This document shows positions 5,764 to 17,469 of a stretch of 64,000 nt of DNA, one piece after another; position 1 is the first letter of the stretch; each line of letters opens with the position of its first letter. The notes under the pieces are model-generated. The model was not told where the DNA came from. It saw nothing but the letters and a program-made list of their open reading frames with translations, and did no database searches. Source of the DNA: Candidatus Scybalocola faecigallinarum (GTDB taxonomy: Bacteria > Bacillota > Clostridia > Lachnospirales > Lachnospiraceae); the NCBI GenBank assembly GCA_018711005.1, contig DVIT01000015.1, positions 1,801 through 65,800 of the forward strand, written 5' to 3'. The translations under genes and the position numbers were made by a program.

Positions 5764-7101
5764 TCACAGCGCCTTCAGCTCCTTTGCCGGCTCCCGCAGC
5801 CGTATCCCGGCTAAGGCAATGAGGCAGCTCACCAGGGCAGCGGCAATGGCGGCCGCCAGGATCGTGATAATATTTACCGGGTAAAAATCAATCCGGTACA
5901 GCTCTCCCCGCAATATTGGCACAGCAGCAAATGCCCCGGCAAGGCCCAGCGCCCCGCCCAGGATAAACACAAGAGCCGCTTCCGCCGCCAGCTCCCAAAA
6001 GCTTTTCCATCGGGTGGCGCCGCAGCAGTACGTTACGGCAATGGACTTCCGCCGGCGGGCCAGCAGCACCAGCAATATGCCAATCATACTGACAAACACA
6101 ATGATCATCACCGTGGCCGATGCCCCGGTAAGCATTATGATCATATTTTGCTGGTCGGCAATACTTTTCTCAGCTTCCAGATACGCGTCATTAATCTCAA
6201 AGCTGATTCCCGGCCGAAGCTGACTAAGACGGGATAAAAGCTCGGGCACCTGGTTGTTGACAGAATCCGCATCCCGGTAGCTGACCACTAATGTATTATA
6301 AGGATTTAAAAGACTGCTAAGCTGACGATATGGAAACATCTCTATTGGCAGGATCACTGCATTTTCCAAAGGTATACGAAAAGAAGCGACGTAATCTTTC
6401 TCCGGAAGATACGGCGATTTGTAGGACATTAAGTCCATATACTCCGGCGCGCCTTTGTCAGGAACGGGCACATATTGGGCGCCGAAATCCGGGGAAAGCC
6501 AGATCTTGCCGTCCCTGGCCGGATACTTACAGGCATCTGCCCATTCCCTGTGTTCATTTTCCATTTCCGAATAAATATCCATGGCCGCCGCTCCCACATA
6601 AATCTTATCCTTTTCCCGCTGGAATGAAAAGGTATCCGCAAACAGCTCATCATTAACAAACATATACCACAAATCAACGCCGTTCTCCGGAGAATTATCT
6701 TTCTCAAAATCATATTTTTGAAACGCCCCGAAGTAAAAGATCAGATCCTGGCCAAACTCATCCAGGACGATGTTATAATCCTCATAATCTATGGGAAACG
6801 GCTCCTCATAATCCCAGCCTTCCTGGCCTTCATAAATTCTTACATAGCCTTCCTCTGTTGTCTCCGCAGTTTCCTTAATCTCTGTCCATGGATCATCTTC
6901 TGCCGTTCCATACCAGGTAATGGTCACCCGGTCCTGAGCCATATCGGCCTTGCTTTGGGCCAGGCGGTCCTGATTTGAAAAAACCATGTTCAGGCAGGTC
7001 ACCAGTAGGGCTGTTCCCACAGCCATTTCAACAATTACCAAACCGTACATTTTAGCTGCGCTGCGCCACAGGCGGAATATTCTGTAAAATGAATACTTCA
7101 T
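5764..7101 (-). CDS. MacB/FtsX-like ABC permease, long type A (copy A4)
   Basis: TM1, large extracellular domain, three C-terminal TMs; YCCGATRW motif; ends PAKELKAL. Likely start MKYSFY at 7101. Confidence 0.85.
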   Translation of the reverse strand: MKYSFYRIFRLWRSAAKMYGLVIVEMAVGTALLVTCLNMVFSNQDRLAQSKADMAQDRVTITWYGTAEDDPWTEIKETAETTEEGYVRIYEGQEGWDYEEPFPIDYEDYNIVLDEFGQDLIFYFGAFQKYDFEKDNSPENGVDLWYMFVNDELFADTFSFQREKDKIYVGAAAMDIYSEMENEHREWADACKYPARDGKIWLSPDFGAQYVPVPDKGAPEYMDLMSYKSPYLPEKDYVASFRIPLENAVILPIEMFPYRQLSSLLNPYNTLVVSYRDADSVNNQVPELLSRLSQLRPGISFEINDAYLEAEKSIADQQNMIIMLTGASATVMIIVFVSMIGILLVLLARRRKSIAVTYCCGATRWKSFWELAAEAALVFILGGALGLAGAFAAVPILRGELYRIDFYPVNIITILAAAIAAALVSCLIALAGIRLREPAKELKAL

Positions 7102-7115
7102 CCCTCTCCCTCCCT

Positions 7116-8243
7116 TCACAGGCCGTAAGCGCGGGCCTCAAGGAGACTGCAGATCTGCCGCCTTCCTGCGGCCGCAACTGTAAGACCGCTAAAAATCAAA
7201 GCAATGATCACGCCCCCTGTTCCGATCACTGCAAGAACGGCGGCATTATATTCCAGGGAAAAGGGGAATACCTTTCCCAGAACGCCGGCAGTGATCCCGG
7301 CATCTATGACTAAAGCGGCAGCCACAAGAATAAGGTTCTGCACCAGGGCTTCCAAAAACAGCCGCCACTTTCCTGCGCCTGCGCTGCGCCGTATACCGTA
7401 GCTGTATTGTTCATTCATGATACAGCCCATAAGGATGAGTCCCACACTAAGGAGCGCAAAGATCATCACAATACCGCCAATGATCAGCCAGCCTGACAGG
7501 GATGCCCGGATGGACGCGTTGATCTGCTCATCTTCCTCAAGGGCCGTCATGGGATCCGACACGCTAAGACCGCCAATGCGATTCAGGCGTGTGACCATAA
7601 GCTCCACACCATCCTCATTCCACGGCTCAGAAGCAGCAATAACCAACCGGTGCTGCATGGCATTTTCCCCGGAAATTTCTCCCATAACAGGGTAGGGGAC
7701 GATCACTGAGGCCAGGATGCGGGTACTGTCAAACATGCCCACCACTTCAAACTCATGTCCCAGGATCCGCAGCTTATCCCCAATACCGCCGCCCCGGGCC
7801 GCAAAATCCGAGGTTGTCTTTACCATACATACATTTGTTCCGGCATCCTCAAGCTCCTGATCGGTAAAGAGCCGTCCGGCTTCAAGGGTATATGGCGACA
7901 AACGAAAAATCTCCGCCGTGGCCCCGCCAACGGTACTGATCAATGTGGTTCCCTGCCAGTCTATAGTTGTCTGGCGCAGACACTCATAGCCGTACTCATA
8001 ATCGCTTAATGCACGGGCTGTATTTTCAGCCGTATAATCCTTTATCACTTTTCGGCTGTCGCTGACAATCAGCACATTTTCAGGAGCATCATAGGCAAAC
8101 TGCCCAATGTCGCTGTAAAGTGCGGATATATGTCCCAACACATAAATGGGGCACAATAGTCCCGCAGCAATGGCCAATACAAGGATCACCTGGATCTTAA
8201 CCTGGTACTTCATATGCCCCAAAGCGCTTTTCAGTAAAAACAT
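7116..8243 (-). CDS. MacB/FtsX-like ABC permease, short type B (copy B3)
   Basis: GRLFTDQEL and FEVVGMF (MacB periplasmic core motifs), GIRRSAGA; 1+3 TM layout. Confidence 0.85.
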   Translation of the reverse strand: MFLLKSALGHMKYQVKIQVILVLAIAAGLLCPIYVLGHISALYSDIGQFAYDAPENVLIVSDSRKVIKDYTAENTARALSDYEYGYECLRQTTIDWQGTTLISTVGGATAEIFRLSPYTLEAGRLFTDQELEDAGTNVCMVKTTSDFAARGGGIGDKLRILGHEFEVVGMFDSTRILASVIVPYPVMGEISGENAMQHRLVIAASEPWNEDGVELMVTRLNRIGGLSVSDPMTALEEDEQINASIRASLSGWLIIGGIVMIFALLSVGLILMGCIMNEQYSYGIRRSAGAGKWRLFLEALVQNLILVAAALVIDAGITAGVLGKVFPFSLEYNAAVLAVIGTGGVIIALIFSGLTVAAAGRRQICSLLEARAYGL

Positions 8244-16344: not shown

Positions 16345-16353
16345 CCCCTCCCG

Positions 16354-17469
16354 CTACCGTCTCTGCCGATCAAGCATCTGACGCACATTTTTTGCGGCCG
16401 TAACAACCGAGAAAATACTCATCATTAATGCTAAAACAAGACCTATACCTACAGCCTGCATCACACACATAAAGCTGTACTGAACCTGGGTCACAAATAT
16501 CTTTTCCAGGGGTAAGGATAGGAGTATACGATCAACGGCCAGGGCCGCCGCAACAATGACAATATTTTGTATTAAGGCCTGAGCAAAAAGCATACTTCCT
16601 TTTGCCCCGACAGCTTTATGGATTCCTACGATCTTTTGTTCTTCAAGGCTCCTTCCTAATGTAATGGCAAAAAGGCTAAAAAATGCAAACAAACATACGC
16701 ATCCCCCGGTTAAAAGCATTTTTACATTTTGCTGGGCATAAATTTCCTCCGCGATACGGTCTTCCTCTGCCAAAGTCGTTACTGTAAAAATATGAATATA
16801 CGGGTTCTCCTTGGATTTTGCTACAAGGCCTTCCCCATGCTCCAGCTCCTTAATAGGGATAATAAACCGGTGCTGAATCTCCCGGACGCCGGAAACATAG
16901 GACATGGCTGGATACGGCACCAGGACGCCGCCAAAAAGTTTTGACGACCGGCCTTCAATAATCCCTACAACCTGATAGCTGTTCCCCATAAATTCTACGG
17001 TATCTCCAATCCGGGTGCCCTGAATATACATTTCACTGGTGGATTTTAAAATACATACAGGCATTGCGTCCTGCTCATAATCTTTTTGCTCAAAAAGGCG
17101 GCCTTCTTTTAAATAAACAGGGACTCTGCCTAATATTCCTAAACTTACGCCTCCAACAGAATCTACGCCGTCCCCATGTTCCCAGCCCATTGTTGTCTCA
17201 TAAATACATTCATAGTCTTTTAAAGGGGTTCCTATAAAATCCTCCACATCATTATAGAAACTCCCTTCCATGACTTTAAGACTTCCATTGACCAGCCAGG
17301 ACTCATCCGCAGATTCATACCGGTTCATTGCATCCATAGCCGCTGATGTATGGATGTATCCCAGGATGTAAAACGGACAGATCAGCCCGGCGGCTATGGA
17401 CAGAATGAATATGAGGCTTATCTTTTTGTTGTATAACAGCCGTTTTAAGGCACACTGAATCACAAACAT
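16354..17469 (-). CDS. MacB/FtsX-like ABC permease, short type B (copy B1)
   Basis: EGRLFEQKDY, YQVVGII, GIHKAVGA. Confidence 0.88.
   Translation of the reverse strand: MFVIQCALKRLLYNKKISLIFILSIAAGLICPFYILGYIHTSAAMDAMNRYESADESWLVNGSLKVMEGSFYNDVEDFIGTPLKDYECIYETTMGWEHGDGVDSVGGVSLGILGRVPVYLKEGRLFEQKDYEQDAMPVCILKSTSEMYIQGTRIGDTVEFMGNSYQVVGIIEGRSSKLFGGVLVPYPAMSYVSGVREIQHRFIIPIKELEHGEGLVAKSKENPYIHIFTVTTLAEEDRIAEEIYAQQNVKMLLTGGCVCLFAFFSLFAITLGRSLEEQKIVGIHKAVGAKGSMLFAQALIQNIVIVAAALAVDRILLSLPLEKIFVTQVQYSFMCVMQAVGIGLVLALMMSIFSVVTAAKNVRQMLDRQRR

Follow-up and report, generated by a model that had tools for sequence, protein, structure and literature searches.

An array of two MacB-like permease types with a single ATPase gene beside a lanthipeptide operon in Candidatus Scybalocola faecigallinarum

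A ten-gene permease array in the rplQ-ispG island

Seven permease genes of two types and one gene for an ATP-binding cassette (ABC) ATPase are packed together in a stretch of 64,000 nucleotides from Candidatus Scybalocola faecigallinarum (Lachnospiraceae, from chicken gut; contig DVIT01000015.1), which is called the window here and whose own numbering is used throughout. They belong to a strain-variable island between rplQ and ispG, which contains the class II lanthipeptide genes LanA/LanM, an AgrC/AgrA-like histidine kinase and response regulator (HK1/RR1) and the array with its own pair, HK2/RR2. We propose that the permeases would act as LanFEG-like self-protection or resistance modules, that is, heterodimeric MacB-type pairs which share one ATPase and carry an embedded paralogous two-component system, and we hold this reading, which is based on sequence comparison, with moderate confidence. 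The evidence comes from the fold of the permeases, the pairing of the two types across loci and the synteny with LanM.

According to the list of open reading frames (ORFs), ten close-packed genes run on the minus strand from 17469 to 5764 in the order B1-A1-B2-A2-ATPase-RR2-HK2-A3-B3-A4, which agrees with the order and the protein sizes given in an earlier note on this DNA. The array starts directly after the ribosomal/rpoA-rplQ operon and its terminator. Neighbouring genes are separated by 6-51 nt or overlap by 4 nt, and the exception is a spacing of 115 nt ahead of RR2. The features are as follows (aa, amino acids; AF2, AlphaFold2 model).

17778..17816, minus strand: rplQ terminator, upstream boundary of the island
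16354..17469, minus strand: B1, type-B permease, 371 aa, most likely the cognate partner of A1 (ORF, Pfam, AF2)
15019..16344, minus strand: A1, type-A permease, 441 aa, or 439 aa with the MKY start (ORF, Pfam, AF2)
13888..15000, minus strand: B2, type-B permease, 370 aa, 51% identity to B1 (ORF, Pfam)
12555..13874, minus strand: A2, type-A permease, 439 aa, 64% identity to A1 (ORF, Pfam)
11871..12542, minus strand: ATPase of the MacB/LolD/FtsE clade, 223 aa (Pfam ABC_tran, NCBIfam, motifs)
10994..11755, minus strand: RR2, LytTR-type response regulator (Pfam)
9690..10997, minus strand: HK2, AgrC-like (HPK10, HATPase_c_5) multi-pass membrane histidine kinase (Pfam)
8295..9683, minus strand: A3, type-A permease, 462/460 aa, most likely unpaired (ORF, Pfam)
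7116..8243, minus strand: B3, type-B permease, 375 aa, most likely the cognate partner of A4 (ORF, Pfam)
5764..7119, minus strand: A4, type-A permease, 451 aa as the longest ORF (ORF, Pfam)

The start of A4 is likely the ATG at 7101, which lies behind a strong ribosome-binding site and gives a protein of 445 aa.

Two rare families of type VII permeases

The two permease types both belong to the type VII (MacB/LolCE-like) ABC proteins. In Pfam, B1-B3 pass the cut-off for MacB_PCD and narrowly miss that for FtsX (for B1, 33.5 bits with a cut-off of 27 and a sub-threshold 19 bits, respectively), and A1-A4 match FtsX above the cut-off (51.9 bits for A1). Hydropathy gives all seven permeases 1+3 transmembrane (TM) segments, namely TM1, a large extracytoplasmic domain and TM2-4. 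For the A1 model (predicted local distance difference test, pLDDT, 79.6; predicted template modelling score, pTM, 0.72), the best Foldseek matches in PDB are LolE/LolC, Spr0694-5, MacB, YbbP and YtrF. The B1 model, which was used solely for its overall fold match given a modest pLDDT of 62, is best matched to MacB, Spr0694/5, HrtB, YtrF and LolE. The top matches of both models are type VII proteins exclusively, with E-values (E) of 1e-14 to 1e-8. Pfam and structural matches therefore agree on the MacB-like type VII nature which the earlier note had assigned, and the FtsX/MacB fold also bears out its statement that the permeases are not of LanFEG or LanT type.

The division into two types is real, because identities are clear from A to A (26-64%) and from B to B (32-51%) but the similarity from A to B is at most marginal, with a best pairwise E of 7e-4 to 1e-4 over short TM stretches only. 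A3 is nearest to the A1/A2 class (43-46% identity) and carries an insert of 23 aa in its TM3-TM4 loop. Most of the divergence sits in the extracellular domains, as had been noticed before: the identity there is 51% versus 94% in TM2-4 for A1/A2, 27.5% versus 47% in the membrane and cytoplasmic parts for A1/A4, and 47% versus 75% in the N-terminal part for B1/B2. The final 123 aa of A2 share 94% identity with A1. The cytoplasmic loop between TM2 and TM3, part of the coupling regions, is conserved, with a YCCGAT motif in type A, and the type-A extracellular domain (about 290 aa) is without a match in Pfam.

Neither permease family has a name, and both are rare. In an index of 5.8 billion proteins, the two families had 4 and 7 matches, and a narrow search pattern found one species among 185,579 representative genomes. 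The narrow type-A alignment also matched two short metagenome contigs, and an exhaustive profile search gave 35 clusters (50% identity) with E below 1e-30.

Probable cognate pairs of permeases

To describe the genes around such permeases, we used context statistics on about ten locus types, which were obtained by exact-protein look-ups (loci and contigs are numbered with L). The same unit recurs in unrelated contigs, as B-A-ATPase in four (L001, L021, L022 and L025) and as A-B-ATPase in L024. A natural A-B fusion of 823 aa also exists (P0024), of which the N-terminal half is type A and the C-terminal half aligns to the whole of B2 (E 1e-21). Across loci, the identities of B track those of the neighbouring A in a mirror-tree comparison, with r = 0.95 for B3 with A4 and 0.84 for B3 with A3, and A3 has no co-diverged B partner. 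Because B and A identities co-vary in this way (r = 0.95), the most likely cognate pairs are B1A1, B2A2 and B3A4, and A3 would be unpaired.

Taken together, the B-A unit, the A-B fusion and the co-variation point to fixed cognate heterodimers in the LolC/LolE manner, so that two different permease subunits would form one LolCDE-like complex. The earlier note had imagined 'combinatorial' A/B heterodimers. The recurrent B-A-ATPase unit, P0024 and the B/A co-variation (r = 0.95) argue against this, and we reject free combinatorial pairing on these grounds; B3, flanked by A3 and A4, is at most the one permease with a choice of partner. We also considered a 718-aa B3::A4 protein (L028/L030) as a fusion argument and rejected it, since the in-frame deletion behind it has taken out TM3-4 of B3 together with the N-terminus of A4.

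The LanM-linked array of L006 contains two pairs and one ATPase. Its first pair belongs to the B1/B2-A1/A2 class and its second pair is orthologous to B3-A4 (45% identity for B and 49% for A). Two distinct pairs on one ATPase would thus be the older layout, and the array of the window would be a form in which the first pair is duplicated and A3 is extra and unpaired.

A single ATPase in the array

The array ATPase matches Pfam ABC_tran with 132 bits, and its Walker A, LSGGEQQR signature, Walker B with the catalytic Glu and H-loop are all intact in the sequence. Its NCBIfam scores lie between 226 and 254 bits (LolD 253.8, DarD 250.3, MacB 235.7 and Lcn972-ABC 227.2, with FtsE also in this range), and it stays below the equivalog or subfamily cut-offs of all these best models. 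Elsewhere in the 64 kb there is just one further ABC ATPase, which is ZnuC-like (55999-56748) and part of a Znu-type importer, so the array has a single ATPase, as the earlier note said. From the gene content, we expect that all pairs would be served by it. No adaptor domain of a membrane-fusion protein (HlyD family) was found by Pfam in the ten array genes or the flanking genes.

Synteny with LanM and with Cys-rich secreted proteins

The array follows LanM downstream, with both on one strand, in two other lineages (L005/L006 and L004). L005/L006, which belong to one of these lineages, have the order RR-HK-LanA-LanM-B-A-B-A-ATPase at the same chromosomal site after rplQ, and LanM is separated from B by 90 nt without a terminator. 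Among the genes seen there, B-A-B-A-ATPase stands alone as a transporter, with no LanT or LanFEG. L004 contains HK-LanA-LanM, two secreted or lipoprotein-like genes, and then B. In the rplQ-ispG island of the window there is likewise no LanT, LanFEG or LanP, and no transporter besides the array. This synteny of LanM and the array in relatives supports a functional link, as had been suggested from the window, between the array and the adjacent lanthipeptide system.

A second context was found in L022/L023, L025/L026 and sibling strains of the window organism, where B-A-ATPase is preceded by a cassette for a membrane thioredoxin-like (Trx) protein, an NHL/DUF5128 beta-propeller, which is a probable lipoprotein, and one or two small proteins; in the sibling strains this cassette stands directly ahead of B2. 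The small proteins (L003:6074-6609, L028:7707-7985, L022:7569-7847 and L025:7476-7751) have a Sec signal peptide, about 60 mature residues and six conserved Cys in the pattern C.W...YC[AS]TP.C.N...C...G..YK..T..GCC, and they invariably adjoin the thioredoxin-like protein, the propeller and the B-A-ATPase unit. They have no Pfam match at E<=0.01, Lactococcin_972 included, and may be disulfide-rich bacteriocins. They end in CC, as the LanA cores do.

Wherever a locus is long enough for its neighbours to be judged, the unit adjoins a gene for a small Cys-rich peptide, secreted or modified, with L001 and L024 as the exceptions. No identified peptide partner adjoins it in L001 and L024, and L021 is too short to show neighbours. 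The expected neighbourhood of peptides that are made by ribosomes and modified after translation is seen in the LanM-linked loci, and it does not extend to the units beside the Trx/propeller/Cys-rich cassette or without an identified partner on short contigs. The array of the window has neither an adaptor nor a lipoprotein gene; in the sibling strains, a probable lipoprotein adjoins the array.

Variation among strains

The array is not invariant, as a comparison of permease number across strains reveals: the permeases of an array number 5 to 8 and its ATPases 1 to 2, and three or more arrangements occur in samples from chicken gut. The arrangements and alleles, with the repeat of the window, are listed below.

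L011/L027, run X1: window type, 7 permeases and 1 ATPase
L003/X7: Trx cassette, B-A-ATPase, B remnant, A-B-A-ATPase-RR-HK-A-B-A, with 8 permeases and 2 ATPases
L028-L030/X5: Trx cassette in place of B1-A1
L028:14758-16914: in-frame deletion allele B3(1-289)::A4(19-451), 718 aa, in several samples
L031:1441-2684: frameshift in A2, one contig of the window species
12556..12855 and 15020-15319 of the window: direct repeat of 300 nt, 96% identical, at the 3' ends of A2 and A1

Unequal recombination could readily use the repeat shared by A1 and A2, and the strain variants are consistent with gain and loss of units.

Selection was estimated from one strain pair, the window and L003. The ratio of nonsynonymous to synonymous substitution rates (dN/dS, omega) is 0.10-0.43 for every permease (0.26 for A3), and all array genes are under purifying selection. 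The synonymous rate (dS) from B1 to A2 is 0.02-0.10, comparable to 0.11 for rpoA, and it is 0.35-0.97 from the ATPase to A4, with 0.22 for A3. This contrast between the array halves indicates a mosaic ancestry, in which the distal half (5764-12542) would have a different and more distant origin than 12555-17469. Variable content and mosaic dS are usual at loci for bacteriocins and immunity. In metatranscriptomes, contigs of low depth match parts of every array gene and of RR1 and LanM, with DNA carry-over possible.

The lanthipeptide operon and the two-component systems

The genes on the other side of the array are as follows.

4559..5545, minus strand: 328-aa protein with (L/K)EQG repeats, between the array and the lanthipeptide genes
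3451..4239, minus strand: RR1, LytTR response regulator of the lanthipeptide operon (Pfam)
2011..3351, minus strand: HK1, AgrC-like histidine kinase
1896..2027, minus strand: LanA, 43-aa precursor MEKEIKLIEKEMEEIKKFDESSNLEDVVSFSSYCGGYLTVICC, overlapping the 3' end of HK1
about 1808-1886: stem-loop with a T-run after LanA, separating LanA from LanM
1..1715, minus strand: N-terminal part of LanM, where the gene leaves the window

In the same organism, full-length LanM has 1003 aa, and the genes after it are ispG and polC. Non-catalytic LanM-like Agr effectors exist in Clostridium (PMC10301443), but an effector of this CA_C0082 type is ruled out here by the zinc ligands of LanM (WCHG/CHG), which are present, and by the Ser/Thr/Cys-rich LanA. 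In L004, L005 and L006, the LanA leaders are near-identical and the cores are variable, with the core pattern S.S..C....T.ICC, and the leader has no GG or GA cleavage motif before the core. LanA/HK1/RR1 looks like a system in which the lanthipeptide acts as autoinducer. A segment at about 1929-2995, which covers LanA and much of HK1, has less than 85% identity in other strains (runs X3 and X5) with flanks of about 99%, and its GC content is about 35% versus 45-50% around it; it resembles the alleles of agr-type specificity groups.

RR1 and RR2 are paralogues with 49% identity, and HK1 and HK2 are paralogues with 42% identity, gapless over 433 aa. In Pfam, RR2 is Response_reg plus LytTR, while HK2 is matched to HATPase_c_5. 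The RR1 promoter contains the direct repeat ATGGCGAAT-N11-ATGGCGGAT at 4322-4350, a LytTR box, whose counterpart upstream of the RR in L005 is ATATGGACA-N12-TTATGGACA. This 9-bp direct repeat has a period of 20-21 nt, and its position is kept in L005.

The promoter of the array is presumed to lie between the rplQ terminator and B1. A scan for promoter and terminator consensus gave no more than two sites, the rplQ terminator and, ahead of RR2, a promoter-like one, and Rfam gave no non-coding RNA within or beside the array. Between the rplQ terminator and B1 there is also an exact direct repeat of 23 nt, GACCACTTAATGAGCCCAAGCCG, at 17622-17644 and 17745-17767, where none is expected by chance. 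The surrounding stretch is indel-polymorphic among strains, and the repeat could be a cassette insertion site or a regulatory element.

For the 328-aa LEQG-repeat protein, the repeats match the Yae1_N (Pfam) and FliH models. Its score on TIGR01784 (Rpn family) is 16 bits with a cut-off of 52, which leaves a kinship with Rpn or transposases unproven. Elsewhere in the window there are two unremarkable features on the minus strand, a cobalamin riboswitch (53580-53774, 95 bits) and an S10-Clostridia ribosomal leader (35782-35865, 87 bits).

Putative function of the array

MacB-family proteins have no transmembrane path and act extracytoplasmically, and the family includes systems for protection against antimicrobial peptides (AMPs) and toxins, such as YknXYZ and BceAB (PMC5985334; PMC11466899). 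In the self-protection reading, each B+A pair would dock two copies of the array ATPase and act from the outer face of the membrane, where the divergent extracellular domains would recognise Cys-rich secreted peptides, and the pair would expel the recognised peptide or shield its target. The peptides would be the lanthipeptide of the cell itself, its relatives and, in sibling strains, the Cys-rich protein secreted by Sec; HK2/RR2 would switch on the distal genes when a related peptide is sensed. We infer the shared ATPase, the stoichiometry of the heterodimer, the peptide substrates, the immunity role and the control by HK2/RR2. Since type VII transporters are understood to act at the outer face and the Cys-rich proteins, with their Sec signal peptides, need no exporter of their own, protection is the most economical common role.

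Several points weigh against self-protection. The LytTR repeat of the RR1 promoter is absent upstream of B1, of RR2 and of the arrays in other loci, so that co-regulation of the array and the lanthipeptide is neither supported nor contradicted, and a different box may serve HK2/RR2. Between the window and L003, the one strain pair compared, the extracellular domains showed no positive selection (omega 0.12-0.35). The B gene that comes first after LanM carries a frameshift in seven contigs of the L005/L006 lineage (L006:4333-5441), so that the first pair is dispensable in that lineage. Further ATPases may be encoded elsewhere in the genome. The LanA product, which is encoded beside an AgrC-like kinase, may be a pheromone and not an antimicrobial, and immunity would then be unnecessary. 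Besides, protection leaves export unexplained in clusters without another exporter or leader protease.

Immunity might also be organised in a modular way, and we put this forward tentatively. Here each cognate pair would be tuned to a different Cys-rich toxin, namely lanthipeptide variants made by rival strains, or the Sec-secreted Cys-rich proteins. The pairs would plug into the one shared ATPase as the S-components of energy-coupling factor (ECF) transporters share an energising module, and they would be gained and lost by recombination between the conserved 3' ends. The duplicated AgrC-like HK2 would eavesdrop on foreign peptides and switch on orphan pairs.

The main alternative, possible but doubtful, is that the pairs are secretion or release machinery for the lanthipeptide, in substitution for LanT, and for the Cys-rich proteins, with separate pairs for separate cargoes; the peptide would be moved out, or extracted and released from the outer leaflet after another step. 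It would account for the lack of LanT, LanP or another exporter in the island or among the genes seen in L005/L006, and for the position of the array after LanM without a terminator in L006. The ATPase scores nearly equally for DarD, the darobactin-export ATPase, and for LolD, and the LanA leader without a double-glycine site does not imply an exporter of the peptidase-containing (PCAT) type. Peptide export by MacB-family pumps is known, for example of the enterotoxin STII, and AS-48EFGH figures in a list as a possible exporter of a bacteriocin, but MacB-type transporters have no known transmembrane path for substrates and their cargoes reach the outer face otherwise (PMC5985334). Furthermore, two to four pairs per single LanA are hard to account for, and the first B of L005/L006 is a pseudogene while LanA and LanM are intact. 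With their Sec signal peptides, the Cys-rich proteins beside B-A-ATPase can do without a dedicated exporter, and this speaks more for protection than for export.

Two other explanations were considered. The pairs could be envelope mechanotransducers that control an extracellular enzyme or lipoprotein in the FtsEX/LolCDE manner, and their adjacency to the lanthipeptide genes would reflect a shared variable island. The best structural matches do include LolCDE and FtsEX, the beta-propeller (a probable lipoprotein) accompanies the unit in several loci, some units lack an identified adjoining peptide partner (L001 and L024, L021 being too short), and a common regulatory box was not found. We nevertheless consider it unlikely, given the synteny with LanM, which keeps the same orientation in two or more other lineages (adjacent in L005/L006, with two genes in between in L004), the Cys-rich peptide gene next to the unit in all judgeable loci save L001 and L024, and the AgrC-like peptide-sensing kinases inside or beside the arrays. 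It is even harder to believe that the transporters are co-sensors or signal handlers for the AgrC-like kinases, by Bce-like flux sensing or pheromone processing, and not protective pumps. HK2/RR2 are indeed placed inside the array, after the ATPase and ahead of A3, with spacings or overlaps of 4-6 nt, and type VII transporters of the BceAB type signal to their kinases (PMC5985334). BceS kinases, however, are intramembrane-sensing, whereas HK1 and HK2 are equipped with multi-pass sensor domains of the HPK10 type, and many B-A-ATPase units have no kinase nearby.

Comparison with known systems

By their defining features, the LolCDE, BceAB, LanFEG, LanT, MacAB-adaptor and Lcn972 families do not include the array. 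In LolCDE, the Gram-negative extractor of lipoproteins, two paralogous 4-TM type VII permeases form a heterodimer with the product of one ATPase gene, as we propose for the pairs of the array; LolE/LolC are the top Foldseek matches of type A, and LolD is the best NCBIfam match of the ATPase. The ATPase reaches 253.8 and 231.8 bits on the LolD models, below the cut-offs of 307.75 and 360 and thus short of equivalog level, and the permeases match none of the Lol models of NCBIfam. Unlike LolCDE, the array is found in a Firmicute (Lachnospiraceae) without outer membrane, has several pairs per ATPase, lies in a lanthipeptide or Cys-rich peptide context and has a type-A extracellular domain outside Pfam.

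LanFEG shares with the array one ATPase gene and two different permease genes in a lanthipeptide cluster, and the self-protection that we propose from the gene context. LanE and LanG are 6-TM permeases of the ABC-2 type without a large extracellular domain, whereas the array permeases are FtsX/MacB-type and have no Pfam match of the ABC2_membrane type. As for LanT, the features of such PCAT proteins (C39 peptidase, 6-TM ABC_membrane and a fused nucleotide-binding domain) are absent from the genes of the island. BceAB/NsrFP are type VII systems with an extracellular specificity domain, linked to two-component systems, and confer lantibiotic resistance (PMC5985334), and they are among the weaker structural matches of the A1 and B1 models. 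A Bce permease is a single 10-TM polypeptide of about 620-660 aa with an OmpR-type regulator and an intramembrane-sensing kinase of the BceS type, but here 4-TM permeases of 370-462 aa occur in A/B pairs with LytTR/HPK10 systems.

YknXYZ and Spr0693-0694-0695 also have 4-TM MacB-type permeases and protect against peptide toxins or AMPs, and Spr0694-5 (5xu1) is among the top structural matches of both permease types. Their permeases form homodimers and work with a membrane-fusion adaptor, in contrast to two permease types and no adaptor gene here; the MacB-type systems of B. subtilis are all modelled as homodimers (PMC11466899). The Lcn972 and AS-48EFGH loci are bacteriocin loci with a MacB-clade ATPase and an FtsX-related permease. 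Lcn972 is a Sec-dependent bacteriocin of about 60 aa encoded beside such a transporter, which parallels the small Cys-rich proteins. The array ATPase scores 227.2 bits on TIGR03608 ('putative bacteriocin export ABC transporter'), below its cut-off of 254.85, and AS-48H is listed as a MacB homologue (PMC5985334). The permease architectures of these loci differ from those of the array, and the small Cys-rich proteins lack a match to Lactococcin_972.

To our knowledge, several type VII permease pairs sharing one ATPase would be without precedent. If the self-protection reading is true, two rare unnamed families would be defined, type A with its Pfam-less domain of about 290 aa and the small secreted protein with six Cys, which could aid genome mining of peptide-toxin loci in gut Clostridia without classical transporter genes. 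The array would also provide a natural set of specificity variants for studies on peptide recognition by MacB-type extracellular domains, and its heterodimeric 4-TM MacB-type pairs would be a third architecture of lanthipeptide self-protection beside LanFEG and BceAB.

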